Of a stretch of 60,795 bases of DNA, positions 1 to 60,795 are shown one piece after another (positions within the stretch are counted from its first letter, which is position 1; each line of letters starts with the position of its first letter). Both the position numbers and the translations under genes were made by a program. A model generated the notes under the pieces. It did no database searches and was not told the DNA's origin. It saw only the letters and a program-made list of their open reading frames with translations. Source of the stretch: a virus; IMG/VR virus record IMGVR_UViG_3300012078_000002, positions 1 through 60,795 of that record; one strand, 5' to 3'.

Positions 1-351
1 GAGCTTCCCCGCATCTCGCCGACATTGGAGCTTTCCCACATCACGCCGACATTGGAGCTTTCCCACATCACGCCGACATTGGAGCTTTCCCACATCACGC
101 CGACATTGGAGCTTTCCCACATCTCGCCGACATTGGAGCTTTCCCACATCACGCCGACATTGGAGCTTTCCCACATCACGCCGACATTGGAGCTTCCCCG
201 CATCACGCCGACATTGGAGCTTCCCCGCATCACGCCGACATTGGAGCTTCCCCACATCACGCCGACATTGGAGCTTTCCCACATCACGCCGACATTGGAG
301 CTTTCCCACATCTCGCCGACATTGGAGCTTCCCCGCATCTCGCCGACATTG
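1..351. repeat. 27-bp tandem repeat array, 13 units (window-start part)
   Basis: GAGCTTTCCCACATCACGCCGACATTG repeats head to tail from base 1 to 351. Units differ only at unit positions 7 (T/C), 11 (A/G) and 16 (A/T). The array decays at 352. Confidence 0.97.
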
Positions 352-758
352 GAGCTTTCAAGAAAAACTTTAACATCATTACAGAGCTTTTTGACCTCAC
401 ACCGTTTTAATCGATAATAACCACTTGTCAATGCCTCGATCTTCTGATCAACCAAAACATGAACTTTCCACCATGCGCAAACGCTCTCCCTAAAAATACG
501 TTCGTATTCGCTCTTGTCAAACCATTCAGGAACTATGTCCTGATCTACCACAAAACACCAGTCTTCCGGATACTCTTCCGGGCTAACCCACCATTCGCCA
601 TTGTTCGGGATTAACTCGGCCCGTACAAATGTTTTGGATGCGCCTATGTAGCTATCTTCAATTCCAAGCGATTCCAACAAGTCTGTATGGCTTTCGTTCT
701 CTCCCTCGGCTATAACTGTTTTGTTTTTTAAGATAATTCCAGATTTAAAATTACACAT
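1..758 (-). CDS. Tandem-repeat protein, N-terminal part (gene leaves the window at base 1 and continues at 60795)
   Basis: Absent from the ORF track because it has no stop in the window. ATG at 758 follows AGGAGAGAAGAC. Translation: MCNFKSGIILKNKTVIAEGENESHTDLLESLG...KVFLE, then SSNVG[V/E]M[W/R][E/G] nonapeptides. Same codon phase as ORF 60408..60794. Confidence 0.8.
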   Translation of the reverse strand, partial: MCNFKSGIILKNKTVIAEGENESHTDLLESLGIEDSYIGASKTFVRAELIPNNGEWWVSPEEYPEDWCFVVDQDIVPEWFDKSEYERIFRESVCAWWKVHVLVDQKIEALTSGYYRLKRCEVKKLCNDVKVFLESSNVGEMRGSSNVGEMWESSNVGVMWESSNVGVMWGSSNVGVMRGSSNVGVMRGSSNVGVMWESSNVGVMWESSNVGEMWESSNVGVMWESSNVGVMWESSNVGVMWESSNVGEMRGS

Positions 759-773
759 GTCTTCTCTCCTTTT

Positions 774-941
774 TTATTTATTGATTACTTCCGTCGCACC
801 GGGAAGTTTCCACAATTCAATCAGTTCGTGCGCTACAACCGCAACCCCTGGTAAGTTGTCAAAATGCACGGCGTCCTCGATTATGTGCAACAATATTTCT
901 TCTAATTTTTTTTGAGCGTTTACTTCGTCATTTGCCGGCAT
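774..941 (-). CDS. hypothetical protein (55 aa)
   Basis: Hand-translated ORF below the track cutoff: MPANDEVNAQKKLEEILLHIIEDAVHFDNLPGVAVVAHELIELWKLPGATEVINK. Its ATG overlaps the stop of the upstream gene. Confidence 0.5.
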   Translation of the reverse strand: MPANDEVNAQKKLEEILLHIIEDAVHFDNLPGVAVVAHELIELWKLPGATEVINK

Positions 942-1110
942 TTATCTTGCCCCCCGTTCTCTTTTCATTGATTATTTCCAACTCCCTCTCCGGCCGCACA
1001 CGGGCGGGATTAGTCCGCACGATGAAAGGATTAAGTGCGCCGTCATTGATGACGCGGCAGTACTCCGGATCGTGAAGCTGTGGCGGTGTGTCTAATTTCA
1101 CAAGGTTCAT
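928..1110 (-). CDS. hypothetical protein (60 aa)
   Basis: ORF track. AAAGAGG lies upstream of the ATG. Co-oriented and coupled with its neighbours. Confidence 0.55.
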   Translation of the reverse strand: MNLVKLDTPPQLHDPEYCRVINDGALNPFIVRTNPARVRPERELEIINEKRTGGKINAGK

Positions 1111-1182
1111 GTTTACCTCTTTCTCCGACGCTTAACGGTCGGGGTATTATATTTATATCTCTGTCCACTCAACTCCTTTTGT

Positions 1183-2115
1183 CTACCCTATAGCCATGAG
1201 ATAACTCATTGCCTTGTCGCTGTCCCTGTTTTCCATCTCGTCCACTATATGCGAATATACATTCAACGTCGTTGTCAGATTTGAATGTCCCAATCTCTTC
1301 GATATGCTTAGCATGGACACTCCTGCAAATATAAGCAGTGATGCATGTGTGTGCCGTAGGGAATGAATAGATATCACTGTAATTCCGGCTTTTTCACATA
1401 ATTTTTCCAGATGGTCATTTGAAGTGGCGTTAAACATTCTTCCGGTCACAAGAACCGGCATGTCCGGTTCCATCCCTATTACAAGGCGGCTAAAAGTTTC
1501 TGCGGTTCTTGGGTCTATTTCTATAACCCTTTTTGATGATACGTTCTTTGTCGGAATAAAGCCCCCTTCTTTAGCCTTATAATTCCACGTCTTATTAATG
1601 CTGAGTTTTCTTTTTTCAAAGTCAAAATCAGCCGGTGTAACTCCCAACGCCTCCGCGTATCTCAAACCGGTTTTTGCGATCAGAAAAATAATCCAATCTT
1701 GATTCACTCCGTGCGTAAGGTCTAAGCTGTACATTAGGCGCTGCAATTCCTGTTGACTTAGCCATTTTTCTTTTTTCTTTGACGGCTCTTTTCCAACTAT
1801 TACTACTTTCTTCGTGGGGTCCCTGACAATAATTCCATCGTCAAACGCATCTCTAATGCTGGCGCGAAGATGTGTGTGGAAATCGCTGACTGTCTGTTTT
1901 TCATGCGTCTTCCCGTACTCGCTTATAATTATTTGGTACATTCTGCGATCCAGACTATCAAGGGTGACGTCAGGAGCAATTTCCATGAGCCGCTGATGGG
2001 TCATAATGTATTTTTGCAGAGTACACTTACTTACCACCCCGCGCTTATAGGTATTAACCCAATCCAGAAAATAAGCTTGAAAAGGCATCTTTTTATTCAT
2101 GTTCTTCGTCCGCAT
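1183..2115 (-). CDS. tyrosine recombinase / phage integrase family (second copy in this genome)
   Basis: C-terminal catalytic signature IHSLRHTHASLL...RLGHSNLTTTLNVYSHI (R, H-x-x-R, H, Y). GGAGGGAG lies before the ATG. Confidence 0.9.
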   Translation of the reverse strand: MRTKNMNKKMPFQAYFLDWVNTYKRGVVSKCTLQKYIMTHQRLMEIAPDVTLDSLDRRMYQIIISEYGKTHEKQTVSDFHTHLRASIRDAFDDGIIVRDPTKKVVIVGKEPSKKKEKWLSQQELQRLMYSLDLTHGVNQDWIIFLIAKTGLRYAEALGVTPADFDFEKRKLSINKTWNYKAKEGGFIPTKNVSSKRVIEIDPRTAETFSRLVIGMEPDMPVLVTGRMFNATSNDHLEKLCEKAGITVISIHSLRHTHASLLIFAGVSMLSISKRLGHSNLTTTLNVYSHIVDEMENRDSDKAMSYLMAIG

Positions 2116-2710
2116 GGCTCCCTCCTCTAAAAAATATCCCTAATTCTCTTTCTAACTCTTCGCTGTGCTCCATCTTGTATACTCCGCTAAATTTCAAAAA
2201 ATCAGCACTGTCGTTACGGATAAAGTACACGTCTTTGACTTTTTGTTCCAATGAATCGCCGTGGATGATTACGCCGCACATTCCCCGGATTGCCATATTA
2301 AAAATCAAAAACGGTACCGCTCGATCTGATAATTCTTCAACTTGGTACCAGTATGTCCGGGGATCGTAACGGGCCGGTCCTATACGCATCCTCTGCTCAT
2401 TCCATTTTTGAATCAAAATTCCACCCGTACCAGCTGCACATTCAAAGTACGTACTTCCTCCAGTAAGCTGTGCAAGTAATCTTGATACACTCATTGGCGT
2501 AAAATCCTGTTTTTTTACCTTCCTGTCCGAATGCTCGCTTTCGAAATATTCCGAAAACCATTCATAGCCCATCCTTGTTTCGTGTTCCAAAAACGCACAA
2601 AATAACTCCTCGCGCTTTTCGGTGTCAAGCATATACGCAAGCATTTCTTGTGGTGCCTGATAGCTCTCTGTGATTCCCAGCAACTCATTTATTTTCTTGT
2701 TTGTTAGCAT
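2093..2710 (-). CDS. N6-adenine DNA methylase-like SAM-binding protein, catalytic motif IV not detectable
   Basis: HsdM/gamma-class-like motifs DFTPMSVSRLLAQL, FECAAGTGG and FLIFNMAIRGM..HGDSL are present. No (D/N/S)PP(Y/F/W) occurs anywhere in the 205 aa. Confidence 0.6.
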   Translation of the reverse strand: MLTNKKINELLGITESYQAPQEMLAYMLDTEKREELFCAFLEHETRMGYEWFSEYFESEHSDRKVKKQDFTPMSVSRLLAQLTGGSTYFECAAGTGGILIQKWNEQRMRIGPARYDPRTYWYQVEELSDRAVPFLIFNMAIRGMCGVIIHGDSLEQKVKDVYFIRNDSADFLKFSGVYKMEHSEELERELGIFFRGGSHADEEHE

Positions 2711-2755
2711 TCTCCCTCCCTTGCCATAGCCACCGTTAATCAGTCCAACAATTCC

Positions 2756-3565
2756 TCAAGAACCCATTCCGATCATCCCGCGCACCGCATCTAAATTTTC
2801 CGTCAAATACATCCGATGTACCCGGCCGCGGATTGCCTTGACTGACTTTCCAATTGCGTCGGCCATCTGCTCATATCTCTTCCCTGCCGCTATCAGTTGG
2901 CCAAGTAATTCAAGCTCCTCTTCCGTCCACCTAACCATATTGTCAGCCTTTACTGGCCGGTCTTTAATGCCCAAATCTGTGAGCCGCCGTTGCATTGCTC
3001 CCTCCGTTCTTCGCATCATCAGGGACAATTCTCGAAAGCCATATTTCTGCTTGCGCACCAGCGCAATTAACTTTTCGTCCTCTGCCCTTGTCCATGGGGT
3101 ATTTTTGAATTGTCGCCGACTATCAATATCCGCCCTGCGTTTTTCTTTCACCCAATCCGGCTCCGCACCTAATGCACATAATTCAAAGTTAGAGAAATCC
3201 AAAAACATTTGATTTTGTTTCGCCCATTTCCAAAAGTCATCTATAAGAACAATCTTGTAAACTTTGTTCTTGACGCGTTTCATACGCATTGGAAAACCTC
3301 TGTTTTCTACCCATGATTTCATTTTGTAGCGACATCCGGTACTACCATATCCCAATGCCGCTAACAGTTGATTCCATGTAATATAATCACCTGATTCCAA
3401 GAAGGCTCCCAATTTTAGCCTATTTTTCTTGACTATAATCGCATTTTTGGATCTGTTTAAAACTTTGGCTATTCTTGTGATCGAGGCGGTTCCCCACTTC
3501 TCATTTAAATATTCTATCTCTTCTGCTGTCCAAGCGCGTCCTGCTCCCATATCCCTAGGGGCCAC
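2756..3565 (-). CDS. Myb/SANT-like triple-repeat DNA-binding protein
   Basis: Three W-T-x-E-E/D-x-x-L repeats (WTAEEIEYL, WTRAEDEKL, WTEEELELL). The start is uncertain: GTG at 3565 or ATG at 3550. Confidence 0.6.
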   Translation of the reverse strand: MAPRDMGAGRAWTAEEIEYLNEKWGTASITRIAKVLNRSKNAIIVKKNRLKLGAFLESGDYITWNQLLAALGYGSTGCRYKMKSWVENRGFPMRMKRVKNKVYKIVLIDDFWKWAKQNQMFLDFSNFELCALGAEPDWVKEKRRADIDSRRQFKNTPWTRAEDEKLIALVRKQKYGFRELSLMMRRTEGAMQRRLTDLGIKDRPVKADNMVRWTEEELELLGQLIAAGKRYEQMADAIGKSVKAIRGRVHRMYLTENLDAVRGMIGMGS

Positions 3566-3613
3566 CGCGTTTTTTTGCGGGAAGCCCGGCCTCCTTTCGG
3601 CAAGCTTCTATCT

Positions 3614-3805
3614 TTACCCTCCGGCATCCGACAAATCTAAACCGGTGCGCTCGTAAAAGTACTTCCGTGATACCCGTCCGGCCACAATGTAAAAGCCTTT
3701 CGCTTCCAGTTCCTCATTAAATTGCTTAATAATCTTGTAAGCCGTGTTTCTTGACACGTTCATCAACTCTGCGACCTCTGTCGCCCGCATGATTGGTGAT
3801 GGCAT
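3614..3805 (-). CDS. small HTH DNA-binding protein (excisionase/MerR-superfamily-like)
   Basis: MRATEVAELMNVSRNTAYKIIKQF...GRVSRKYFYE pattern, typical of HTH_17/Xis-like proteins. AAGGAGGTGA precedes the ATG. Confidence 0.65.
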   Translation of the reverse strand: MPSPIMRATEVAELMNVSRNTAYKIIKQFNEELEAKGFYIVAGRVSRKYFYERTGLDLSDAGG

Positions 3806-3817
3806 AATGTCACCTCC

Positions 3818-3976
3818 TTATCCGACTTTTTCATCACTTGCAATGGTATGCAGGTTAAATATAGTAGATATTGTTGTGAATAACATCTGCTTCTCTTTAG
3901 AGGACAATTCATCTGTTCCGTTCAAGATTTCTTCAATCTGATCAAGACGCTCTTTCAATTTTTTGGACTTTTTCAC
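3818..3976 (-). CDS. hypothetical small protein (52 aa, GTG start)
   Basis: Hand-translated: (V)KKSKKLKERLDQIEEILNGTDELSSKEKQMLFTTISTIFNLHTIASDEKVG. GAGGTGAG lies upstream. Confidence 0.4.
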   Translation of the reverse strand: MKKSKKLKERLDQIEEILNGTDELSSKEKQMLFTTISTIFNLHTIASDEKVG

Positions 3977-4003
3977 TTACTCACCTCGCTTTCCGTTTGT
4001 TTT

Positions 4004-4726
4004 TTAGGCAATAAACTTGTTGATAAAATATTGCTGGCCGTATCCTGTTACCTTGGTTGTCTTGCTAATTGTTGTGTGCCCGTCAGAATGGGTGATTGCA
4101 GTTTCCTTAACTTCGAAAAGTTTCATCTCCATACTGCGCTGTGTGGGAGCATTGTAGTCAGTTCCCTTCCGACGGATCAGATAACCATTATTTCTTAAAT
4201 ATTCAAATAACCGCTTCTCGCCGGTATCCACACCGTTTTGTTTTAGGATTTTCGCCAGTTCGCCGATCAAGATTGATGTTTTGCTTGTGGCTACCGCATC
4301 AGCAAATAGTGCTTTGGGCTTCATGCACTGGTTGTCTTCCAATAAAATGACCTTTTCGCTTTTTAATTTACTTATTTGTGCATCAGCCATCTTTAATGCC
4401 CTTGCCATGATCTGCTCCGGAGCGTTCCAAGCTTTTTCTAATTCAAGAAAATACTGGCGATATTGTCTGCCTTTCTCGGAACGCTGGATCATACAAATTT
4501 CCTTTGCCATATCAATTTTGATTTCATAATCAATCGATGGCCGACCGCCCATTTCAAGGGTTTTACTCTTTTTTGAGTAAAAGTCTCTACCTTCTTCAAA
4601 TCCATATTCGGCCATTCTTAGAAACCAATCGTTAAATCTGGTTCCAATTTTCAGCGCCTCGTGTAAATCCCTTGCCGATACTGTCGGCTGTTCTGTTTCA
4701 TAATTGATTCTAATTAACTCGTTCAT
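4004..4726 (-). CDS. phage antirepressor (AntA/ORF6N N-terminal plus KilAC-like C-terminal domain)
   Basis: MNELIRINYETEQPTVSARDLHEALKIGTRFNDWF... then ALFADAVATSKTSILIGELAKIL. Start moved to M17 behind AAAGGAG. Confidence 0.75.
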   Translation of the reverse strand: MNELIRINYETEQPTVSARDLHEALKIGTRFNDWFLRMAEYGFEEGRDFYSKKSKTLEMGGRPSIDYEIKIDMAKEICMIQRSEKGRQYRQYFLELEKAWNAPEQIMARALKMADAQISKLKSEKVILLEDNQCMKPKALFADAVATSKTSILIGELAKILKQNGVDTGEKRLFEYLRNNGYLIRRKGTDYNAPTQRSMEMKLFEVKETAITHSDGHTTISKTTKVTGYGQQYFINKFIA

Positions 4727-4801
4727 AATCTCCTTTCTCTCAACGTCTTTGATTTTTAATATTATGTGTCTCACCTCACTTTCTACTTGCTTTGTAAGTA
4801 T

Positions 4802-4830
4802 ATATTACCACTGCGTGAGTGAGATGTCAA
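4802..4830 (-). promoter_or_regulatory. candidate early (lytic) promoter
   Basis: The minus strand reads TTGACA, a 17-nt spacer, then TAATAT, about 70 nt upstream of the antirepressor gene. Confidence 0.55.
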
Positions 4831-4850
4831 CACTTTTTTTAAATTTTTAC

Positions 4851-4879
4851 TTGCTTAGTGAGCGGAAATATGATATATT
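4851..4879 (+). promoter_or_regulatory. candidate repressor-gene promoter
   Basis: TTGCTT, 17 nt, TATATT on the plus strand, just upstream of AGGAGG and the TTG start at 4902. TACTTGCTT is repeated at about 4790 and 4848. Confidence 0.4.
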
Positions 4880-4901
4880 ATATTTATAAGGAGGTGTTAA
4901 T

Positions 4902-5294
4902 TTGAAAGAGCGTATAAAAAAAGTAAGGGAAAGCCTCAATATGAGCCAAGCGGAATTTAGCAAGGAAATATTGGTCGGTTCGTCCACGGTAGCAATGTGG
5001 GAGCTGGGAACAAGGAGCCCCAAAGACATACACATTTCGAAAATATGCGAAAAGTTAAGTATAAGTGAAGTTTGGTTGCGGACTGGCAAGGGCAATATGA
5101 AAAAAGATCTTTCTATAGAAGAAGAAACATATGGACGATTCGGGAAGATAATGGAAGTGGGAAGTCCCATAAAGAAAAACATGGCTACAATGCTATTAAA
5201 GATAGTGGAAACACTTCCGGACGAACAATGGGAAAGAATCTATGAAGAGTTCAAGGCCTGCATTGACAGGGTAGAAAAAGAGGGCGAGGATTAA
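4902..5294 (+). CDS. XRE/CI-type HTH repressor
   Basis: LNMSQAEFSKEILVGSSTVAMWELGTRSP is a classic Cro/C1 HTH. The gene is divergent from the early operon and next to the integrase. TTG start follows AGGAGG. Confidence 0.85.
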   Translation: MKERIKKVRESLNMSQAEFSKEILVGSSTVAMWELGTRSPKDIHISKICEKLSISEVWLRTGKGNMKKDLSIEEETYGRFGKIMEVGSPIKKNMATMLLKIVETLPDEQWERIYEEFKACIDRVEKEGED

Positions 5295-5339
5295 TCCCCG
5301 CCCTCTAAAACACCTCTTATTAAACTAATGAGGTTTTTT
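5280..5339 (+). terminator. candidate terminator after the repressor gene
   Basis: GAGGGCG...CGCCCTC hairpin, then ACCTC...GAGGT followed by TTTTT. Confidence 0.4.
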
Positions 5340-5562
5340 AAGAATTTAGCGCTATGTATTTTGTCAATCAATTCATGCAGTTCGTTTTTGAGACTATCCA
5401 CGTATACACACCCCTTTCACTGTCAGCAAGCCAGATATTCATTACAGATTTGCCGATGTGTATATTATAACTGCACGCCAACATCATGTCAACAGGAAAA
5501 TAGAACACAGGTTCGACTTATTTCAAAGTTATTCGACAAATAGAAAGGGAGGTAATCAAATA

Positions 5563-6618
5563 ATGCCAGCATACAAAGATGAAGCCAGAAAAACGTGGTA
5601 CTGCAAATTCTCTTATACTGACTGGACGGGAAAGCAGCGGCAGAAGTTAAAGCGCGGTTTCCCATCGAAGAAAGAAGCCGCTGCTTGGGAGCGTAACTTT
5701 TTAGAACGGCAGCAGGGAAACCCCGATATGACCTTCCAGACCCTTTGTGCGCTCTACATGGAAGATATCACCATGCACCTCAAGGAATCCACGGTAGACG
5801 GCAAGGAGCATCGTATCAGAAACCACATACTGCCTTATTTCGGGGATAAGCGAGTGAACGAAATCAAGCCCGCCGATATAAGGAAGTGGCAGGGGATTAT
5901 AATCGAAAAAGAATTGAGTCCGACTTATCAAAGGTTGTTAAACGGGAACCTTAATACTATTTTTAATTTTGCGAAAAGGTATTATGGACTAATTGCTAAT
6001 CCGTGTGCGCCGGTAAAGACTATAGGCAAAGCAAAAGCAGGGCGCATGGAGTTTTGGACACAGTCCGAACTTGTTGCTTTTCTTGATTACACAAAAGACA
6101 CAGAAACTAAACTGGCCTTTCAGATACTTTTTTATACGGGCTTACGCTTCGGCGAAATGTTGGCGCTTAATCCGAACGCGGATATTGATTTGGAAAATGG
6201 AGCCCTAACGGTGTCAAAGACACACCACCGAAAACGCGGGAAGGATATAATCACGTCCCCAAAAACAGACAACGGAAACCGCGTTGTTATGTTGCCGTCG
6301 TTTTTGGTTGAACTAATAGGGGACTACATGAGTCATATCTATGATATTCAATCCAGAGAACGACTATTTCTATTCTCACGCAACAAACTCAGAAGAGCCA
6401 TGGAAAGGGGATGTCGACAATCCGGCGTCAAGCGCATTCGGCTGCATGATATCAGACATAGTCATGTGTCTATGCTCATAGAAATGGGGTTTTCACCTTG
6501 GTTAATAGCTGAAAGGATTGGCGACACTGTCGATATGGTCAATAGCATCTATGGGCACTTATATCCAAACAAGCACAAGGACGTGGCTGATGCGCTAAAT
6601 AAAATCGTATCAAAATAG
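5563..6618 (+). CDS. int: site-specific tyrosine integrase
   Basis: Start moved to MPAYKDEARKTWYCKF (arm-binding N-terminus) behind AAAGGGAGG. C-terminus RLHDIRHSHVSMLI...IYGHLY. Confidence 0.93.
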   Translation: MPAYKDEARKTWYCKFSYTDWTGKQRQKLKRGFPSKKEAAAWERNFLERQQGNPDMTFQTLCALYMEDITMHLKESTVDGKEHRIRNHILPYFGDKRVNEIKPADIRKWQGIIIEKELSPTYQRLLNGNLNTIFNFAKRYYGLIANPCAPVKTIGKAKAGRMEFWTQSELVAFLDYTKDTETKLAFQILFYTGLRFGEMLALNPNADIDLENGALTVSKTHHRKRGKDIITSPKTDNGNRVVMLPSFLVELIGDYMSHIYDIQSRERLFLFSRNKLRRAMERGCRQSGVKRIRLHDIRHSHVSMLIEMGFSPWLIAERIGDTVDMVNSIYGHLYPNKHKDVADALNKIVSK

Positions 6619-18074: not shown

Positions 18075-19463
18075 TTATCCAATACCCGGGTACTGCAATG
18101 CGCCGTCTTTGTCGGGTGTTAGCGTAACCGGCTCTGTTGCCATTTCACCGTTTTCATTCAAATAGTACCACTTCCCGCCGATGTCCTGCAATCCTTTCAG
18201 CATAGCCCCGTCTGCACCGAGATAATACCAATGCCCGTTATGCATGTACCAGACATTAGTAGCCATCATTCCGGCTCCGTCAAACCAATACCACTTACCA
18301 CCGTCAAGCACCCAATCATTAGCTACATAACTGCCCGTGTCGCCATTGTAATAGCGCCAGCTGCCATTCTCCTCGGTCCATCCGGATTTTACCGTTACGG
18401 TAACGCCGTAGCGCATTGCTATCGCAGAGGCTTCTGCCTGTGCCAGCCGATCAAGGTTGTTATCATCAAGCAACCAGGCCGTACTGGCGGCATTTGTGTG
18501 GAACGAATGTTCAAGGATTAACCCCGGCGTTCCTACTGCGGTGGCTCCGCGGATTACACCGTAATAATCGCCGTTATTGCCGCTCCTGTTTTCGATTCTG
18601 GCGGCTTGCTTTGTTCCCATGCAATTTTCTACCACCTGTGCCAGCAAAAGCCCTATAGCGTCCGCTGAATGATTTATAGCGCAATAAGCAGCGGGATAAT
18701 CGACACTATTATTGACTGTGCTTGCTACCGCATTTGAGTGATTGGAGATGAATAGATCACAACCTTTGGATGCTGCTCCGCGATCATACAAATCCCTGTC
18801 GGTTGCCTGATTAGCGCGCGTGGTAATGACCTCGAATCCATATTGCTGTAAGTACTTATTTTGTAACTCTGTTAATTTCCACGCCATGTCTGATTCGTAA
18901 TACCGACTGTCTGCCGGTGACTGATTATATTTTCCGAAATGCCCTGCATCAAGACATATTTTCATCGTTTTCCCTCCATCATATTGAGCCAGATTGTTAC
19001 TCTCAATGATTGCACATAGCTTGTCTACGTAGGCCGTGTCAGTCGCGTACCCACCGGCCTTAATGATCTGCGCTGCCGTTCGGTAATTCGTGCAGCCGGA
19101 AAGACCTGCATAGCGCAAGTTATTCCCATTCATGGCTCCCAACAAGTAGTCACTGTGATCATTGATGGACTGCGCAAGCGATTGATACTTGCGGAAAGCT
19201 GCCGTGATCGTGTATTCATTGCCGGCAGTGTCCTGCTCCTTGGTTTCTTTGGTGTATGTGCTGCCATCCCACTCTGATGCCCATGTGTTGCCGGATAACA
19301 CGGCCTTCATTCCGAATAGATTGCTTGCCATGACTGCCAGTTCACTGGTTCCATACGCCGACTCCAGACAGGCCTGCGCGATTGTGACGCTTGCAAGGAT
19401 GCCGGATGTCTTCATATCAGCTTGGGCAGCTTCGGCGATTAATTTTATGAATATTTGTGACAT
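18075..19463 (-). CDS. three-domain endolysin (glucosaminidase, amidase_3, cell-wall-binding repeats)
   Basis: GH73-like: TIAQACLESAYGTSELA...LFGMK. Amidase_3-like: ICLDAGHFGKYNQ...FISNHSNA. C-terminal GWxxxNGxWYYf-type repeats: GKWYWFDGAGMM, GHWYYLGADGAM, GKWYYLNENGEM. Confidence 0.9.
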   Translation of the reverse strand: MSQIFIKLIAEAAQADMKTSGILASVTIAQACLESAYGTSELAVMASNLFGMKAVLSGNTWASEWDGSTYTKETKEQDTAGNEYTITAAFRKYQSLAQSINDHSDYLLGAMNGNNLRYAGLSGCTNYRTAAQIIKAGGYATDTAYVDKLCAIIESNNLAQYDGGKTMKICLDAGHFGKYNQSPADSRYYESDMAWKLTELQNKYLQQYGFEVITTRANQATDRDLYDRGAASKGCDLFISNHSNAVASTVNNSVDYPAAYCAINHSADAIGLLLAQVVENCMGTKQAARIENRSGNNGDYYGVIRGATAVGTPGLILEHSFHTNAASTAWLLDDNNLDRLAQAEASAIAMRYGVTVTVKSGWTEENGSWRYYNGDTGSYVANDWVLDGGKWYWFDGAGMMATNVWYMHNGHWYYLGADGAMLKGLQDIGGKWYYLNENGEMATEPVTLTPDKDGALQYPGIG

Positions 19464-28967: not shown

Positions 28968-30290
28968 TTAATCAACAAAAACTTCCATATAAAGCTTGCT
29001 CATTGCCGCTACCGGCTGCACGTTGACACCGACAAGAACCGCTTCTTTCGCTTTTCCGGCCACTACCGTAACATCGGTTGCGCCGTCAAAGTTTTCAATC
29101 GCTCCAAGGGTTTGTAGTTCGCCGAAGTATGTCAGCAGCATGGCTTGGAATATGCCTCTGCCGTCTGCGTTATTCTGCACTATTCCCTTAAATGACGTTT
29201 CCCAGATCGTGCTTGTACTTGTTCCAATTTCATCAAGTACCCTTATAATCTGATTGAGCCGGAAGTCCTCTGATAATTCAGTCGTGTATGTACGCAGACT
29301 GTTAATATCGTCTTCAACCACAATGCTACCGCTTGTATTCACCGACAAAATGAATTTGCCCGACTGCAAAGCTTCGATGATTTCGGAATTTGTGCGTTCG
29401 TTCAGAATTCGAGTGGCACCGGTAAATGTCTTGGCAACATTGGATTGTGTCACGGATGCCCCGGCAGTAATCCCAGCAACCCACGCAGTAGCCTCTTCGG
29501 CGGTTACTTCAACGTCGCCCATCATTACACCGCAGTCGGAATTGATAACCCCGTGGTAATCGGCTGCGTCATAATTTGCAACAACAATCTGGACGTACTT
29601 GCCCTCTGTGTCGCGCATTTCCTCTGCAAACTTAGCGAACTGCGCGGCGAAAGTATCATTATTCTGCGTCAGCGCCATTGTCTGCCAACGCGCCTTGCGT
29701 GCTAATGCCAGGTATGCCGGGTAAGCCGTCACTGGCGTTACTGTGCCGTTCGTACCGCCCGATAGGGTAATGCCGGCATTTATGGCCAATGCACCGAATC
29801 CGCTGAATTCCACATAATCGTTGTTTACAAGCTCCTGCACTGTGGAAGCTGTTTGTGCGTCCCTGCTTACGCCGTCGACGTAGGTTGTGACCGTGAAAAG
29901 GCCATCAGATTCGGTTATGGCCACGGTAATCATGTTGCCTTTCGTGCCGGCATATTTCGCCTTTGCTGTAAGGCTGCCTTGCGTTGCAGTTGCTCTTACA
30001 CCGCCGCTATCGAGTCTATAAAATAGCCCAAGATAGCAATTTGATAACATCAAATTCGGGAGTTTTGCTTCTTCATCAAATGCCGTCATTCCGATTTTTG
30101 CAAGACTCGTTCCGTCTGTCATATCAGTACTGTAGACGCTAATCAGCTCCCCTTCCGGGCCCCAATTCATAGGGAATGCCATCGTGCCTATCCCTCTATC
30201 CCCAACCTGCATAGTTGGGGCTGAAACGGCGGTGAAATTGATATAAACGCCTGGACGGGTCTTGTTCTGTGAAATCCATCTTCCACCCAT
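28968..30290 (-). CDS. contractile tail sheath protein (XkdK-like)
   Basis: 440 aa. N-terminus GGRWISQNKTRPGVYINF is typical of phage sheath proteins. Synteny supports the call. Confidence 0.85.
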   Translation of the reverse strand: MGGRWISQNKTRPGVYINFTAVSAPTMQVGDRGIGTMAFPMNWGPEGELISVYSTDMTDGTSLAKIGMTAFDEEAKLPNLMLSNCYLGLFYRLDSGGVRATATQGSLTAKAKYAGTKGNMITVAITESDGLFTVTTYVDGVSRDAQTASTVQELVNNDYVEFSGFGALAINAGITLSGGTNGTVTPVTAYPAYLALARKARWQTMALTQNNDTFAAQFAKFAEEMRDTEGKYVQIVVANYDAADYHGVINSDCGVMMGDVEVTAEEATAWVAGITAGASVTQSNVAKTFTGATRILNERTNSEIIEALQSGKFILSVNTSGSIVVEDDINSLRTYTTELSEDFRLNQIIRVLDEIGTSTSTIWETSFKGIVQNNADGRGIFQAMLLTYFGELQTLGAIENFDGATDVTVVAGKAKEAVLVGVNVQPVAAMSKLYMEVFVD

Positions 30291-33577: not shown

Positions 33578-34231
33578 TTAAATTAAATAAACCCCGTTTT
33601 CGGCGGCTTCTGTTTTAATCCTTATCGCATCCTGTGTGCTTCCTGCTTTTCTTGCGGCAGTAAGTTGGCTTACATAATCCGGCTTTTCACCGGCTCCTGC
33701 TGGCGGCGTAGCCACTCCCGCTCCGGTAGTGGTAGTTGTCCCGAATACGTCGGCATAGCTTTCCTTGACCGATTTTGTCAGATCGTCATAATTGGACACA
33801 ACGCCATCTTTGTACTCGGCTTTTGTTACATCAACCTCTTTCAGCAGCAGCTTGACAAGTTTCTGATTTGCGCCGTCTTTGAGTAATCGCGTTTCGATAT
33901 CTGCCGTGATTGCCGACGTGGTTTTTTCCGATTCGACGTTGGTTTTGTAATCGCTGTATTCTTTTTCCTTGGCCGCGATATCAGCATCGTACTTGGTTTG
34001 CAAATCCTCAAATTTCTGCTTGTATGTATCCGCGTCGGCAGATTTTCCTTGCAGATCTTTGTTTTCGGCTTCCAGTTCGATGATTCTGTCCGTTTTTTTG
34101 CTATACTGCTCTTTTGGCACGAACTCCTTGCCCTGCTCGGCCTTAATTTCTTTTTCGATTGCCTTCAAGGTCTTGTCCATAATCTCTACCCCTTCCGGCA
34201 AGTTGTCTTTGATGATTGCTAAAATATCCAT
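33578..34231 (-). CDS. scaffolding protein (GP20-like)
   Basis: Helical, acidic, K/E-rich. Lies upstream of the capsid gene. AGGAGGAG upstream. Confidence 0.75.
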   Translation of the reverse strand: MDILAIIKDNLPEGVEIMDKTLKAIEKEIKAEQGKEFVPKEQYSKKTDRIIELEAENKDLQGKSADADTYKQKFEDLQTKYDADIAAKEKEYSDYKTNVESEKTTSAITADIETRLLKDGANQKLVKLLLKEVDVTKAEYKDGVVSNYDDLTKSVKESYADVFGTTTTTGAGVATPPAGAGEKPDYVSQLTAARKAGSTQDAIRIKTEAAENGVYLI

Positions 34232-34241
34232 GTGCGTACTC

Positions 34242-34404
34242 CTCCTGGCTTTTATAGCGGTTCCACGCTAGAGTATTTGGTCTCTTAGTTGCTGTTTTGC
34301 AATTCTCGCTCCTGGCTTTTATAGCGGTTCCACGCTAGAGTATTTGGTCTCTTAGTTGCTGTTTTGCAATTCTCGCTCCTGGCTTTTATAGCGGTTCCAC
34401 GCTA
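34242..34404. repeat. 67-bp direct tandem repeat, 2.4 copies
   Basis: CTCCTGGCTTTTATAGCGGTTCCACGCTAGAGTATTTGGTCTCTTAGTTGCTGTTTTGCAATTCTCG at 34242..34308 and 34309..34375 (identical). A partial third copy occupies 34376..34404. Confidence 0.95.
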
Positions 34405-56696: not shown

Positions 56697-57073
56697 ATTT
56701 CAACCTCCCGGATAATAATCTCAATCCGGGGATTACCAGGATCGCAATGAAAATTATCCGTAAATCCTACAATATGTTTCCATCCGTCCCCCTGCAGCGT
56801 TCCACACTTCACAAGTGCGTCTTGAATCACCTTGCGGCCAAAACTGGAAATATTATCAAGGTCTCTTTTTCTGTCTTTTTCGAACCAGTTATAAATGATT
56901 CTTACGGGCCTAGATATATGTAACCGTCTCAATTGTTGCCGGATGGCCCACTGTACTACTTCTTGGTTTTGGGCTTTCATTTTCCCGCCTTTGCGGGGGC
57001 TGGTTCGGTTGGCTGCTGTGTATTCATTCAGACCATCCAAACGCCCTTGGATAACAAATTTGTATTCCATCAC
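56693..57073 (-). CDS. rusA: RusA-family Holliday junction resolvase
   Basis: Size, RKRDLDNISSFGRKVIQDALVKCGTLQGDGW, and 4-nt overlaps with its neighbours. Confidence 0.8.
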   Translation of the reverse strand: MMEYKFVIQGRLDGLNEYTAANRTSPRKGGKMKAQNQEVVQWAIRQQLRRLHISRPVRIIYNWFEKDRKRDLDNISSFGRKVIQDALVKCGTLQGDGWKHIVGFTDNFHCDPGNPRIEIIIREVEI

Positions 57074-57867
57074 AAATCCCCCATTAATTCAGAAAAATGA
57101 ATCGCTTTGGTGAGTACTTTTGTGTGCTTACAATAATCACACACCTCACAGCGGATTGGTTCATAGTCGCCATTTTTCAATGCAAAAATTTTCGCTACAT
57201 TACTTTCGACCTCAATCAGTTTTTCTTTCAGGTGAAGATCATCAATGAAAATAACGTTGATGTCCGGTTCCTTTTCTTTACTGGCCGCAGCTATAAAAAA
57301 CGGAAGTTTCTCGCCGGTGTTTTGTCTGACAATCTCCTGATATACAGCCCCTTGGATGTCATAACCCCAATACTGGACAAAATCCATATATCCGGTATCG
57401 CGAACCCAGAATGTGTCCTTAATAGCTTTCATCACTTTGAGATCAACAATCGCTTGACCGGGCAAATAACTGTCAATTTTGATTTTTACCTTTGCGCCAG
57501 CTATTTCGCCGGTCATAATAACTTGTTTTTGCCCAGACAGATATTGCATCATGTACGCATCTCTTTCGATCCTACATATAACATTTTCGGCATTCCTGTA
57601 GTCTGCTTTTAGATCGCCGCTTTTGGTGAATATCTCTGAATTAGACGCCTTGAAAAGTCCTAATGATTCCTCAAAGTGGGCATCTACGTAGGAACCAACC
57701 AGCAAGGCGGTAGTCTTATCTGTTATCCATTCTCCCGACAGTTTCGCGAGTGCTTGGGCTTCGCACGGGACTTTTCCCAAACTACCGCAGAAGTCCTTGT
57801 ACTGGCTAACAGACAGGTATTCCTGATTAGCTTCTTTACTGTGGTAATTCTCTACACTTAGGATCAT
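57070..57867 (-). CDS. PD-(D/E)XK (RecB/Cas4-like) exonuclease
   Basis: IVDLKVMK (D-x-K), QYWGYDIQGAVY (QxxxY) and the C-terminal Cys cluster CEVCDYC. Partner of RecT. Confidence 0.75.
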   Translation of the reverse strand: MILSVENYHSKEANQEYLSVSQYKDFCGSLGKVPCEAQALAKLSGEWITDKTTALLVGSYVDAHFEESLGLFKASNSEIFTKSGDLKADYRNAENVICRIERDAYMMQYLSGQKQVIMTGEIAGAKVKIKIDSYLPGQAIVDLKVMKAIKDTFWVRDTGYMDFVQYWGYDIQGAVYQEIVRQNTGEKLPFFIAAASKEKEPDINVIFIDDLHLKEKLIEVESNVAKIFALKNGDYEPIRCEVCDYCKHTKVLTKAIHFSELMGDL

Positions 57868-58490
57868 ACGACTACCTCCGTTATAGCGGGAAATACATCC
57901 GGAATATCATAGAATGTCTTTTCCTTGAACGCGTCTTCGGCCTCGCCCTCTACGTATACGCCCATTAGGGCATTGGGCAAGTAAGCCCTTGCGAAAAATG
58001 CAGCTGCGCGATAAATCAACATTTGTTCGGGCATCGTCTTCCACTTACTGCCGTCTTTATTTATCCAGCCTTCCTTTTCCGCCATTTCCATAGTGACGGT
58101 TGTCCCTTTTACGATTTCCCCGGTGTCTTTATATTCTGCCTCAACGAAACATCCTCGGTCAGCGTCCCCCTCTTTGCCCACATGCCTGATTCTCGCGTTT
58201 TTAAACTGTCTGGCGGCATAAATCATGCTCATGCAAGCCTGTCCGCTCCAAGTTGGTTTTCCCTTCACAATATATAAATTTTGCATTACCATCATCGGAC
58301 TCACCTGCATTCGGTTCGCCATGTCAACCGCAATCGCACAATCCATCGGCTTGCCTCTATAGCTGCTTGGTACGATGTCAGACACCGCGAACATTTTCCC
58401 TATATCATATAATTCCTGAAAAGCGGCTGAGTTCGCGAACGGGTTTGTAACCTCGTATTTTTGATCTTGAATAATGATCTCGTTATCCAT
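57864..58490 (-). CDS. recT: RecT-family single-strand annealing protein
   Basis: MFAVSDIVPSSYRGKPMDCAIAVDMANRMQVSPMMVMQNLYIVKGKPTWS is a typical RecT core. Confidence 0.85.
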   Translation of the reverse strand: MDNEIIIQDQKYEVTNPFANSAAFQELYDIGKMFAVSDIVPSSYRGKPMDCAIAVDMANRMQVSPMMVMQNLYIVKGKPTWSGQACMSMIYAARQFKNARIRHVGKEGDADRGCFVEAEYKDTGEIVKGTTVTMEMAEKEGWINKDGSKWKTMPEQMLIYRAAAFFARAYLPNALMGVYVEGEAEDAFKEKTFYDIPDVFPAITEVVV

Positions 58491-58498
58491 GTGCCCTC

Positions 58499-59929
58499 CT
58501 ATAATTCCACTACCAGTAAATCGTCGTCATCGGTTGTCCGTGTTGCGATAAACTGTAAGCCTTTGTCTTTGCATTTTTGGTATAACTCTGTTCTCAATTT
58601 AGTCGACAGCTTTTCCACGCCATCAATCAAAATGATTTGCAATCCATTAGGTTTCTGAATTGCCACATCGATGCAAAGGTCTAACTTTTCTCCATCCGAC
58701 AGGTTGCTGATCGGCAAGCCACGAATCAGTGGTATCCCGTCTTTTACCGTAAGCCCTTCGATAGGGATTTTTGCGGTCTGTAAAATTTCACCCGGCAAAG
58801 CCCTGGCCTTTTCAATCTTTTCGGTCAGCATACGTTCTTCTTCTATCAATTCATCCACCTTCTCCTGCATATTAAGCATGCGGCGGTGTTCGTTTAAATG
58901 TTTCTTCATTTCCTCAACATATACCGCTTCTTCCATAAGGCTGCTTGTCTCTTGTGGCTCTTTCTCTGCGCATAACCGGTATTCATCTACTACCGCGTCA
59001 TAGGTGGCGATATCCGCCCGGTACTTCTCTTCTACCAGATCGGTTTTGCTTTGCTTTTTGCTTGACAGTCCGGAAAGCTCTTTCCGGCAGGAATTGATCT
59101 GTTCTTCAAGAGAAGCAATTTTTTCCTTCAAATCAGATTCTTGGCGCATACACTCTCTTTCCAATGCTGCCAGTGCAATTTCTCTTTCCGCGTCATAGGC
59201 ACGCACCTTGTTATTGCGCTCATTAACTAAGGATTTGGCCTTTTGAATTGTTTCGTTTTCTTTTCGGATCCGCTCGATCCGTTGATACAACTCTGACAAA
59301 TCCGCTTTCTCCCATCGCTCTGCCTGATAGCCAGTCGGGATTGTAGCCGCTATTTCTTCGATAAAAGCCCTCTTGTTTCGTTTTTCCAAGGCAATATCAT
59401 GGCGCTGCTGGAAATATTCCCCTTTTTCAGATTGGATATCATTAAGAACCGAAAGAATGTTTTGATCGTAAGATACCCAGCTGGGGATTTCACCAAACCA
59501 TTCCTTGATCGTCTGCACGGTCCAGGGATACTCAACCATATCCAAAATAATGGCGTTTTGCTGCTTTTTGTCCATGCTCATAAATTCAAATGGAGAAAGC
59601 TGTAAGGGGCTGAATATATCCCTCAGAAACGATTCCGGACTACCGACCTCATACCCATCCTTTTTCACGCTTTTATAATCTGCCTGCGTGGTTCTGGCTT
59701 TCCGGTTGATCCGCATGTTATTATCTGTTTCGATCAAAATTTCGCCCTCGGTCTCTCCTTTCCGTACTATGTATTCCCGGTCTGACTTGTTTGTCAGAGC
59801 GTAGCGGATCGCGTCAATAACAGAAGTTTTTCCAGCCCCATTTAAGCCGGATAATTCCAGGCTTTTCCCGTCCGCTTCAAATTCTTTGATACCAAAAAGA
59901 TTTTTGATTTTGATTTTTGTTAGTCGCAC
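58499..59929 (-). CDS. SMC/RecF/SbcC-like AAA ATPase
   Basis: Walker A GLNGAGKTS, a long coiled-coil, signature LSDGEK, and Walker B IILIDGVE. Start moved to the GTG (VRLTKIKIKNLFGI) behind AAGGGAG. Confidence 0.85.
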   Translation of the reverse strand: MRLTKIKIKNLFGIKEFEADGKSLELSGLNGAGKTSVIDAIRYALTNKSDREYIVRKGETEGEILIETDNNMRINRKARTTQADYKSVKKDGYEVGSPESFLRDIFSPLQLSPFEFMSMDKKQQNAIILDMVEYPWTVQTIKEWFGEIPSWVSYDQNILSVLNDIQSEKGEYFQQRHDIALEKRNKRAFIEEIAATIPTGYQAERWEKADLSELYQRIERIRKENETIQKAKSLVNERNNKVRAYDAEREIALAALERECMRQESDLKEKIASLEEQINSCRKELSGLSSKKQSKTDLVEEKYRADIATYDAVVDEYRLCAEKEPQETSSLMEEAVYVEEMKKHLNEHRRMLNMQEKVDELIEEERMLTEKIEKARALPGEILQTAKIPIEGLTVKDGIPLIRGLPISNLSDGEKLDLCIDVAIQKPNGLQIILIDGVEKLSTKLRTELYQKCKDKGLQFIATRTTDDDDLLVVEL

Positions 59930-59976
59930 TTGACAATCTCCCTTCATCCCCCTATAATTGGGGGTGTACAGTATAA

Positions 59977-60213
59977 TTATTTATTCGATTCCCCGGCTGA
60001 CTCCGCAGCTGGGGTTTTGCTATCCCCATGGCGCATGTTAAACAGTATGCCAAACAGTTCTGCCACCTCTTCTGCTGTATAGGCAGCGCCGAGGTTGTGT
60101 TCTGCATGGCTCCAAATCCATCCCGCGATATTGCAAAATGCCGTGCCAAAATCTTCACCGGCAAGTAGTGCTGCGTAATCCAGGGCGGTCAACCTTACTA
60201 TTATTTTTTCCAT
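59977..60213 (-). CDS. hypothetical protein (78 aa)
   Basis: Start moved to MEKIIVRL behind AGGAGGAAAG. Confidence 0.55.
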   Translation of the reverse strand: MEKIIVRLTALDYAALLAGEDFGTAFCNIAGWIWSHAEHNLGAAYTAEEVAELFGILFNMRHGDSKTPAAESAGESNK

Positions 60214-60226
60214 TGCTTTCCTCCTT

Positions 60227-60427
60227 TCACTGGACAAGCATCTTCCCGCATGATTTGCAGTAAGCATGTATATGATTATTCGTGCCACTTCTGGAAAACC
60301 GCATTGTACCGCCACATGTGCAAGTTATTTTTTCTTTACCCTCTTTCTCGGATTTTTCAATTAATTCAATAAATTGATTTAATTCCCTTATCTTTAATTG
60401 GATTGATTCATTCGCTTTTGCTTCCAT
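60227..60427 (-). CDS. zinc-ribbon protein (66 aa)
   Basis: CTCGG...CKSCGK. Start moved to MEAKANES. Overlaps the repeat-protein stop by 20 nt. Confidence 0.55.
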   Translation of the reverse strand: MEAKANESIQLKIRELNQFIELIEKSEKEGKEKITCTCGGTMRFSRSGTNNHIHAYCKSCGKMLVQ

Positions 60428-60795
60428 TTGCCGATTCCTCCGTTTTGTTTTCAAAAGCAATCATCTCAAATCTGTCAAGCGAATCTGCCGGAACCATGAC
60501 TTTGATTTTGGGATAATTTTTAAAGTCTCTGGCGGTGGAGCTTCCCCGCATCTCGCCGACATTGGAGCTTCCCCGCATCTCGCCGACATTGGAGCTTTCC
60601 CACATCACGCCGACATTGGAGCTTTCCCACATCACGCCGACATTGGAGCTTCCCCGCATCACGCCGACATTGGAGCTTCCCCGCATCTCGCCGACATTGG
60701 AGCTTTCCCACATCACGCCGACATTGGAGCTTTCCCACATCACGCCGACATTGGAGCTTTCCCACATCACGCCGACATTGGAGCTTTCCCACATC
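60408..60795 (-). CDS. Tandem-repeat protein, C-terminal part (enters the window at 60795)
   Basis: ORF 60408..60794 carries SSNVG[V/E]M[W/R][E/G] repeats, then SSTARDFKNYPKIKVMVPADSLDRFEMIAFENKTEESANGSKSE. Same phase as the ORF that leaves at base 1. Confidence 0.8.
   Translation of the reverse strand, partial: MWESSNVGVMWESSNVGVMWESSNVGVMWESSNVGEMRGSSNVGVMRGSSNVGVMWESSNVGVMWESSNVGEMRGSSNVGEMRGSSTARDFKNYPKIKVMVPADSLDRFEMIAFENKTEESANGSKSE
60538..60795. repeat. 27-bp tandem repeat array, 9.6 units (window-end part)
   Basis: Same unit as 1..351, beginning at 60538. The last unit is truncated after 15 nt by the window edge. Confidence 0.97.
60673..60795. repeat. 123-bp terminal direct repeat (identical to 1..123)
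   Basis: Unit-variant order (C-G-T unit, three T-A-A units, then the first 15 nt of the next unit) is the same at both ends. Read base by base. Confidence 0.9.

Follow-up and report, generated by a model that had tools for sequence, protein, structure and literature searches.

Why should a tandem array in a phage genome be invariant at almost every position of its repeat unit and vary, from one unit to the next, at the same three nucleotides only? The question is raised by IMG/VR virus record IMGVR_UViG_3300012078_000002, a stretch of 60,795 nucleotides (nt) which was analysed at its full length and is referred to as the window. It is the genome of a temperate, myovirus-like phage of Lachnospiraceae or related Clostridia, and arrays of a 27-nt unit stand at both of its ends, where they form part of a protein-coding gene. 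On balance, it is probable that this array is a recombination-shuffled recognition module, carried on a predicted β-solenoid, of an early, non-structural accessory protein of the phage. The observations leading to this reading, and the alternatives that have to be weighed against it, are described in the following.

A repeat gene divided between the contig ends

Tandem Repeats Finder places the 27-nt array at 1..359 (13.3 copies) and 60536..60795 (9.6 copies), with a score of 627. Direct tabulation yields 13 full units at 1..351 and 9 full units plus 15 nt at 60538..60795. Among these 22 full units, 24 of the 27 unit positions are invariant, and differences occur solely at position 7 (T in 13 units, C in 9), position 11 (A in 14, G in 8) and position 16 (A in 15, T in 7), just as had been stated in a first-pass annotation made from the letters alone. 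On the minus strand, the three sites correspond to the codon pairs GAA/GGA (E/G), TGG/CGG (W/R) and GTG/GAG (V/E), all of them amino-acid-changing. The five unit types distinguished in that annotation (VMWE, EMWE, VMRG, EMRG and VMWG) were likewise recovered, with the unit at 244..270 being the sole carrier of the W-G combination. A consensus search allowing up to 3 mismatches returned 22 matches, all of which are array units (0 expected in shuffles), and no unit-like copy was found outside the array in the window.

Positions 1..123 of the window are an exact 123-nt duplicate of positions 60673..60795, and this duplicate lies wholly inside the array. Because its two ends are identical over 123 nt, the window is a circularised contig. 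Trimming of the overlap gives a circle of 60,672 bp in which the array comprises exactly 18 units (486 nt), while an aberrant 15-nt unit would arise if the ends were joined untrimmed. The overlap of the ends had escaped the first-pass annotation, and its count of 22.6 units is therefore correct for the letters present (22 full units and 15 nt) but includes 4.56 units twice, the true merged array having 18. That the contig breaks within the array suggests a branching or repeated k-mer at this point.

After merging, the array is part of a single open reading frame (ORF) on the minus strand, which starts with the ATG at 758-756, passes through position 1 and continues around the circle to a stop at 60408 (1,023 nt, 340 amino acids (aa)). 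The encoded protein consists of a 134-aa N-terminal domain (N-domain), 18 copies of the nonapeptide SSNVG[E/V]M[W/R][E/G] and a 44-aa tail; the coordinates of these parts are collected in Table 1. In total, the array can be read without a stop in three of the six frames, namely SSNVG (-), QCRRDVGKL (-) and ELSHITPTL (+), of which only the SSNVG frame joins the conserved flanks. Since the array is open in three frames, spurious repeat 'proteins' appear in ORF lists (25-417 on the plus strand and 60520-60792 on the minus strand).

An array in which a contig begins and ends calls for an appraisal of its assembly. Exact look-ups of neighbouring proteins recovered no more than two additional assemblies, of which one is collapsed and the other interrupted at the array. 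A MEGAHIT contig (ENA ERZ27241879) shares 100.000% identity with the window over flanks of 10,436 and 10,163 nt and carries a single unit, resulting in a product of 187 aa (P0026), and Logan contigs of SRR6448759 contain the same flanking genes and end at the array on both sides. A megablast search of INPHARED with window positions 1-6000 gave no match, and an exact 40-mer of the array/N-domain junction had no match in IMG/VR or JGI metagenomes; additional independent assemblies containing a complete array did not come to light. Related arrays behave similarly: 17 of the 31 array-bearing IMG/VR contigs run off within the array, runs of N lie inside the arrays of three GTDB contigs (L048, L053 and L057), and both termini of the 42.5-kb contig JAHZDE010000015.1 (L055/L073) fall within the array, like those of the window. 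That three sites vary is solid; unit number and order in the window are provisional.

These findings are what would be expected if unit number, unit order and the mosaic had originated from de Bruijn-graph traversal and merged variants, that is, from a short-read assembly artefact or a population mixture, in which case the mosaic would carry no information on any one genome. The exact overlap of the contig ends inside the array fits such an origin, and so does the unreliability of short-read assemblies reported for analogous fungal repeats (PMC12222747). As an explanation of the whole pattern, an artefact is nevertheless unlikely. Irrespective of unit order, the five unit types and the three variable sites hold at read level, and 30 arrays obtained from many samples, assemblers and isolate genomes (Clostridium porci, Anaerotaenia torta) vary in these very codons. 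Moreover, array L010 repeats the first 7 units of array L003 exactly, even though both stem from different samples, so that assemblies can be consistent. An artefact would also leave unexplained the nonsynonymous excess and the positional concentration of variants described below. What can be said is that, as the arrays break or collapse short-read assemblies, virome databases systematically contain truncated and mis-assembled versions of the family.

Homogeneous scaffold and variable codons in the repeat family

A search of 5.8 billion proteins yielded at least 1,232 homologues (counted as clusters at 90% identity), the lengths of which step by 9 aa (240, 249, 258 and so forth, up to 328). 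Their common design comprises an N-domain of the form MC(R/Q/N)FKSGI...SH(S/T)DLL, units of the form S-S-(Q/N/T)-V-G-x-M-x-x and a cap motif, S-(T/I)-A-(R/K)-(D/N)-(F/Y/W)-K, which is present in 112 of the 120 homologues listed. The family is large and unannotated and is common in phages of human and animal gut Clostridia; according to the GTDB contigs, its hosts belong to the Lachnospiraceae and related Clostridia (Clostridium porci, Lacrimispora, Anaerotaenia torta, Faecalimonas, Hungatella). Across 1,149 units, Met7 is invariant and positional entropy amounts to 1.76, 2.06 and 1.64 bits at positions 6, 8 and 9, respectively, compared with at most 1.06 bits elsewhere. Position 6 is occupied by E, K, V, T or A, position 8 by W, R, L, C, Y, F or H, and position 9 by G, D or E. 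The suggestion that these three residues of a repeat fold have been shaped by selection gains support, as codons 6, 8 and 9 are hypervariable in 30 arrays with about 1,150 units. By contrast, the linkage of W with E and of R with G seen in the window does not extend beyond it. The closest relative, L002, also has W-G and R-E units, and the commonest pairs at positions 8 and 9 are near independence family-wide (L-D and R-E being among the over-represented ones). The linkage is a local effect of recent duplication.

For the analysis at DNA level, 30 arrays, including those of isolate genomes, were used after the junction unit of each array had been dropped. Distinct within-array variants comprise 167 nonsynonymous and 17 synonymous ones, 9 of the latter coming from one degenerate array. 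With a neutral synonymous fraction of 0.208 for these units, a binomial P of 2e-5 is obtained, which is optimistic given that the 30 arrays are phylogenetically non-independent. The large majority of the nonsynonymous variants (127 of 167) fall in codons 6, 8 and 9. For the window alone, the statement that all three changes are nonsynonymous is true but insignificant, as about 79% of random changes would be nonsynonymous (P ~0.5); significance is reached only family-wide.

The remaining codons of the unit, its scaffold, are uniform within arrays and synonymously different between lineages (TCC/TCA, GTC/GTA, GGC/GGA, AGC/AGT). Most arrays contain no more than about one synonymous variant, while scaffold four-fold degenerate sites differ between arrays at 0.39-0.65. 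A scaffold that is homogeneous within arrays and synonymously diverged between them bears the mark of concerted evolution. Given the synonymous differences between lineages, the array design is also old and family-wide, and the idea of a young array built from two unit types had to be given up.

Array turnover can be observed directly where the flank has not diverged at all. Arrays L003 and L004, whose N-domains show 0 differences in 390 nt, have 27 and 17 units, respectively, in a different order and with internal insertions and deletions of units. Similarly, the arrays of L022 and L033 begin with different units at only 2 N-domain differences in 390 nt. In L002, the N-domain of which differs from that of the window at 23 of 402 nt (15 of these synonymous), the unit scaffold is nucleotide-identical to that of the window, and a fourth variable site (S/N) is present. 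The claim that the array does not reflect slow divergence is supported by L003 and L004, which differ in unit number and order at zero N-domain divergence. The relatives do not display the pattern that had been named as speaking against it, a fixed unit order with ordinary synonymous divergence within units. Recombination and selection, on the other hand, had been offered as two options and are better regarded as acting together, with the scaffold undergoing concerted evolution and diversity being kept at three sites. Taken as sequence evidence, the combination of within-array diversity at three codons and a homogenised scaffold indicates concerted evolution plus selection for diversity.

In a neutral recent expansion, a few ancestral unit variants would have been amplified by slippage and the three sites would have no selective meaning. 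Both the W-E/R-G linkage and the block duplications resemble recent amplification, and the window's three nonsynonymous sites taken by themselves are in agreement with neutrality. We nonetheless consider neutral expansion improbable in view of the family-wide excess of nonsynonymous variants and their concentration in codons 6, 8 and 9. In addition, the same positions vary in lineages with synonymously diverged scaffolds, and homogenisation clears variation everywhere but in these three codons.

Two further comparisons, drawn from 30 loci, concern the pace of scaffold evolution. Among close relatives, the unit consensus has 0 differences at 114 four-fold sites, while the N-domain has a difference of 0.18; among mid-range relatives, the corresponding four-fold differences are 0.39-0.42 for the unit consensus and 0.63-0.66 for the N-domain. 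Scaffold nucleotides thus evolve more slowly than the single-copy flank, for which codon bias, repeat exchange between phages and recombination constraints are candidate reasons.

Slower four-fold sites in close relatives, three open frames and a position adjoining the recombination and replication module are features that a DNA-level element, such as origin iterons or other protein-binding repeats with incidental coding capacity, could likewise exhibit. Such an element is very improbable here, since the frame is continuous with the conserved N-domain and the C-terminal cap, and since the amino-acid periodicity persists in distant members despite quite different nucleotides, some of these members even having 8-residue units. 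Furthermore, a more conventional iteron set exists elsewhere in the window (see below).

Predicted fold and partners of the N-terminal domain

Family assignment of the window protein has been attempted with several resources. No Pfam family matched at E ≤1, the N-domain included, and PADLOC gave no meaningful match. PHROG 4433, annotated as 'unknown function', matched with an E value of 9.3e-10, but the match is confined to residues 207-302, which is repeat region, and thus adds no functional information. An NCBIfam match to CopZ was dismissed as repeat-region noise (E 0.0011; 19 bits versus a 91-bit cutoff). A trypanosome LIM-domain protein (9e5c_0q; E 3.4e-15 in a PDB profile search) was dismissed as well, because it shares a 9-residue periodicity (an EATEVAEAV-type repeat) and not homology. 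RNA families of Rfam are absent from the window.

Using a 63-sequence alignment, AlphaFold2 (AF2) models residues 1-103 with a predicted local distance difference test (pLDDT) score of 80-97. In the repeats, with pLDDT values of 50-66, it places β-strands with an 18-residue period, equivalent to two units per turn. An AF2 model of the N-domain only reached a mean pLDDT of 82.6 and a predicted template modelling (pTM) score of 0.77. Foldseek comparison of the full model with the PDB returned nothing significant (all E ≥0.31), and the weak matches all are β-helix or solenoid proteins, namely SufB/D, GlmU, ice-binding proteins, autotransporters and YdcK (2pig). The N-domain model had no match in the PDB and in BFVD matched only a fragment of an uncharacterised homologue. 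A sister protein with the same N-domain and GNATVxxIC 9-mers (P0216, 238 aa) belongs to another architecture and matches PF18836, the YdcK β-solenoid repeat, with 56.8 bits; a second one (P0209) reaches 27.4 bits at a gathering score of 30 bits. Kinship of the window protein with this fold class is therefore plausible, even though it matches no Pfam family itself. Additionally, the degenerate 9-mers and 8-mers of distant members (e.g. DNSTVTAY) keep their hydrophobic periodicity, which speaks for a structured solenoid rather than a disordered linker. From this model we infer that the repeats form a β-solenoid with two units per turn. Hence, three variable residues per unit, as originally noted, would correspond to six and not three per turn. 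If Met7 faces inward, the flanking residues x6 and x8 would face outward and, with x9 following, could give rise to a continuous exposed stripe.

YdcK β-solenoids (PF18836; PDB 2PIG) and left-handed β-helix or β-roll repeats resemble the array in having repeats of about 9 residues and about 17-18 residues per coil. In some subfamilies (P0184, P0213, P0255, P0242), the same N-domain is followed by 8-residue units of the type (D/G)NSTVxA(Y/W) or GGTIQSVR, and the 9-mer looks like such an 8-mer with one additional residue (G5), possibly a β-bulge. Other repeat classes were considered and rejected for the window protein: the RTX nonapeptide β-roll (GGxGxDxUx) on account of the lacking GG and of the lacking Asp at position 6, with no Pfam family at E ≤1; the pentapeptide repeat (PF00805) on account of a period of 9 instead of 5 and the missing Pfam match; and the hexapeptide repeats on account of the consensus and, again, the missing Pfam match.

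The N-domain itself is found far beyond the homogeneous arrays. A full HMMER scan of 1.84 billion representatives detected it in 679 clusters at 50% identity, nearly always starting at residue 1. Its partners include homogeneous or degenerate solenoid repeats of 8 or 9 residues and, in a 153-aa protein (P0258), pentapeptide repeats (PF00805, 7.5e-11). In a 656-aa protein (P0136), it is joined to degenerate 9-mer repeats and a C-terminal ArdA anti-restriction domain (PF07275, 2.2e-14). At 13 loci in IMG/VR and about 14 in GTDB (among them L034-L046 and L059-L069, respectively), the partner is a domain of the type ...WYWLATPNQTP...GVRPFFILKS with a weak match to DUF6273. DUF6273 is a C-type-lectin-like target domain of diversity-generating retroelements (DGRs) (PMC10743442; bioRxiv 10.1101/2024.10.15.618418). 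In locus L036, a variable repeat (VR, 4671-4759) and a template repeat (TR, 5264-5352) are 80% identical, with 15 of the 18 mismatches at TR adenines, and a reverse transcriptase (RT) is encoded downstream (5465-6508; RVT_1, 3e-15). Judged by these features, the lectin-like domain of L036 is a genuine DGR target.

The N-terminal domains of these DGR proteins are homologous to that of the window family (47-61% identity over about 100 aa), and, as in the arrays, hypervariability of the C-terminal module affects a few defined codons, in phages of the same host group. In contrast, their diversity arises from RT-mediated, adenine-specific mutagenic retrohoming instead of recombination among units, and the variable module has a different fold. 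The pairing of this N-domain with DGR targets appears to be new. That one N-domain is coupled either to a DGR-diversified domain or to a repeat array is the strongest argument for the array being a diversifying recognition module. Two unrelated diversity generators on one N-domain amount to a natural experiment, which strongly suggests that this domain needs a fast-evolving recognition module as its partner.

With true DGR targets among sister proteins sharing the N-domain, a DGR or another dedicated mutator might also be held responsible for writing the three variable sites of the window. This is the least probable of the explanations considered, and extremely so. A tblastn search of the window with the L036 RT gave only matches of E >3, a template-like copy of the unit was not found elsewhere in the window, and the coding-strand substitutions (A/G, T/C and T/A) are not adenine-specific, which together point to diversification by recombination and not by a DGR.

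As a separate observation on the N-domain, Cys2, directly following the initiator Met, is near-invariant, Ser23-His24 and Asp72-Gln73 do not vary in either alignment, and Asp74 is fully conserved in one of them and nearly so in the other. These conserved Cys, His and Asp residues hint at a possible N-terminal-nucleophile or Cys-His enzymatic site.

Genomic position, possible role and parallels

The repeat gene is located in an operon with the order antirepressor ... second tyrosine recombinase, two small ORFs, repeat gene, two small ORFs, AAA ATPase, RecT, exonuclease ... DnaB. In all three loci examined (the window, L005 and L031), it lies between a CI-type repressor and a single-strand-annealing recombinase. 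The latter is RecT in the window, a weakly Rad52-like protein in L005 (E 0.00096, below the Pfam threshold) and Sak in L031. In distant relatives, the other neighbours differ, although the placement between repressor and recombinase is kept. The nearest head-and-packaging gene found, that of the terminase, is about 17 kb away. The conservation of position across recombinase families and the distance from the packaging gene favour an early accessory role and argue against a virion protein. In lambdoid phages, the corresponding region holds host-takeover and anti-nuclease genes; the family sits where phages keep genes for host takeover and anti-defence. It is suggestive that the adjoining annealing recombinase could drive the exchange of units, such enzymes promoting exchange between short direct repeats.

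This position also bears on the possibility of a virion receptor-binding protein, in which the N-domain would serve as an anchor and the variable β-helix or DGR lectin would bind the host surface in the manner of tail fibres. Tail fibres classically combine a constant N terminus with a variable C terminus that can be swapped, tail spikes commonly contain β-helices, and DUF6273 DGR targets are usually read as receptor-binding proteins (PMC10743442; bioRxiv 10.1101/2024.10.15.618418). Still, a virion protein is about as improbable as neutral expansion. Besides the early-operon position in all loci examined and the distance from the head-and-packaging gene, the small size of the proteins (190-340 aa) speaks against it. 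The neighbours of the DGR locus L036 (region 4001-6508) are also non-structural, encoding sigma-like and GmrSD_N-like proteins besides the RT, and one family member is fused to ArdA, which acts intracellularly as an anti-restriction protein.

For the preferred reading of the array as a shuffled recognition module, the following course of events may be envisaged. Intragenic homologous recombination (slippage, unequal exchange and gene conversion) would keep the S, V, G and M scaffold identical to the nucleotide, while x6, x8 and x9 would be kept different between units. Reshuffling, duplication and deletion of units could then produce new stripe combinations and lengths at a rate far above that at which point mutation alters the flanks. 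The variable stripe would represent a binding surface with a specificity under diversifying selection, and the conserved N-domain a constant 'handle' or effector, so that the array would be a recombination-driven functional equivalent of a DGR variable region. Speculatively, the protein may recognise or inhibit a variable factor of the host or of a competitor early in infection, in counter-defence or host takeover; its target, and a function in counter-defence in particular, are a guess. A more specific version of this proposal can be put forward only tentatively: that the protein is a widespread intracellular combinatorial recognition protein of temperate gut Lachnospiraceae phages, the specificity of which lies in the order of three-residue codes on the 9-residue β-solenoid repeats and is revised through homologous recombination, perhaps with the help of the adjacent single-strand-annealing recombinase of the phage, as a retroelement-free counterpart of the DGR proteins on the same N-domain, and which is directed early against host defence or competitors.

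Several points weigh against the proposed recognition module. No member of the family has an experimentally assigned or annotated function, be it in Pfam, in PHROG 4433 or in PADLOC, and the window protein itself lacks a match to PF18836. The repeat part of the structural model is of low confidence, and the placement of the variable residues on one face is predicted solely from the alternation of residues in β-strands. Most arrays have been assembled from short reads and are often broken or collapsed, so some differences in order between arrays could be assembly errors. The counter-defence idea draws on gene position and a single ArdA fusion. Moreover, the arrays are only mildly acidic, with a mean of -0.044 charges per residue and a charge of -9 over 162 aa for the array of the window, for which reason a DNA mimic of the ArdA/Ocr type was rejected; we estimate the net charge of Ocr and ArdA at about -0.17 to -0.23 per residue.

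By analogy, the closest known evolutionary mode would be that of the WD40 repeats with 'high internal conservation' of fungal NOD-like receptors (NLRs). In the HET-D, HET-E and HNWD proteins of Podospora anserina, these repeats are near-identical through concerted evolution, with few hypervariable sites under diversifying selection, and specificity changes by deletion, duplication and reshuffling of repeats, their short-read assemblies being unreliable (PMC2873952, PMC12222747). Both signatures, a similarity within arrays far above that between arrays and a nonsynonymous excess in a few codons, are found in the phage family as well, together with the same assembly problem. The fungal repeats differ, though, in being eukaryotic 42-residue β-propeller blades on a STAND NTPase, whereas the window protein has a predicted β-solenoid of 9-residue units, a small novel N-domain and the position of an early phage gene; there is no homology. 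Transcription activator-like (TAL) effectors offer a looser analogy than the fungal receptors, the likeness being functional only. TAL effectors consist of near-identical tandem repeats with two to three variable residues, the order of which encodes specificity, and recombine readily. Their units, however, are α-helical, 34 residues long and read DNA bases one per repeat, while there is no sign of a linear polymer target here. We know of no YdcK protein for which a hypervariable triad has been described. To our knowledge, and according to a literature search, no early protein of a phage has been reported to combine near-identical repeats with selected hypervariable sites. A diversification strategy recognised in fungal NLR sensors and TAL effectors is thus met in an unexpected place.

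The features of the window mentioned above are summarised in Table 1. Portal, tape-measure and baseplate genes as well as a helix-turn-helix repressor of the CI type and an antirepressor are also annotated.

Table 1. Location of the parts of the repeat gene and of further genes in the window
Feature	Position	Strand	Evidence and remarks
N-terminal domain, 134 aa (MCNFKSGIILK...SHTDLL...)	357..758	-	Translation; GGAGAG ribosome-binding site just upstream of ATG
Promoter-proximal array part, 13 coding units + 5 nt	1..356	-	Frame continuous with N-domain
Distal array part	60543..60795	-	Only 60543..60672 new (4.8 units); 60673..60795 duplicates 1..123
C-terminal cap/tail (SSTARDFKNYPKIKVMVPADSLDRFEMIAF...) and stop codon	60408..60542	-	Translation, homologue alignment
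Two small ORFs (55 and 60 aa)	774..1110	-	Upstream, same operon; conserved in close relatives L002 and L006
Second tyrosine recombinase, 310 aa	1183-2115	-	Phage_integrase family; early operon, just upstream of repeat gene
Integrase	5458-6618	+	Annotation; typical, next to repressor
Endolysin	18075-19463		Annotation
Tail sheath	28968-30290		Annotation
Large terminase	41663-43066		Annotation
DUF3799 exonuclease	57070-57867	-	Early operon; Pfam on identical contig L001
RecT	57864-58490	-	Early operon; Pfam on identical contig L001
AAA_15/AAA_23 ATPase	58499-59947	-	Early operon; Pfam on identical contig L001
78-aa ORF	within 57070..60427	-	Early operon, downstream of repeat gene
Zn-ribbon protein	60227-60427	-	Early operon, downstream of repeat gene; Pfam on identical contig L001

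Two further repeats are present in the window. About six 11-bp direct repeats (GTTCACTTGTT-like; 11 bp x 5.7) occur at 54288-54351, inside ORF 53920-54672 and immediately upstream of the DnaB-like helicase gene (52637-54103); they plausibly represent a candidate replication-origin iteron set. In the structural module, a perfect tandem duplication of 67 nt (2.4 copies, 100%) occupies positions 34242-34404, in the intergenic leader upstream of 33578-34231 (minus strand), and may have arisen by recent duplication or from misassembly, or may serve as a regulatory repeat.

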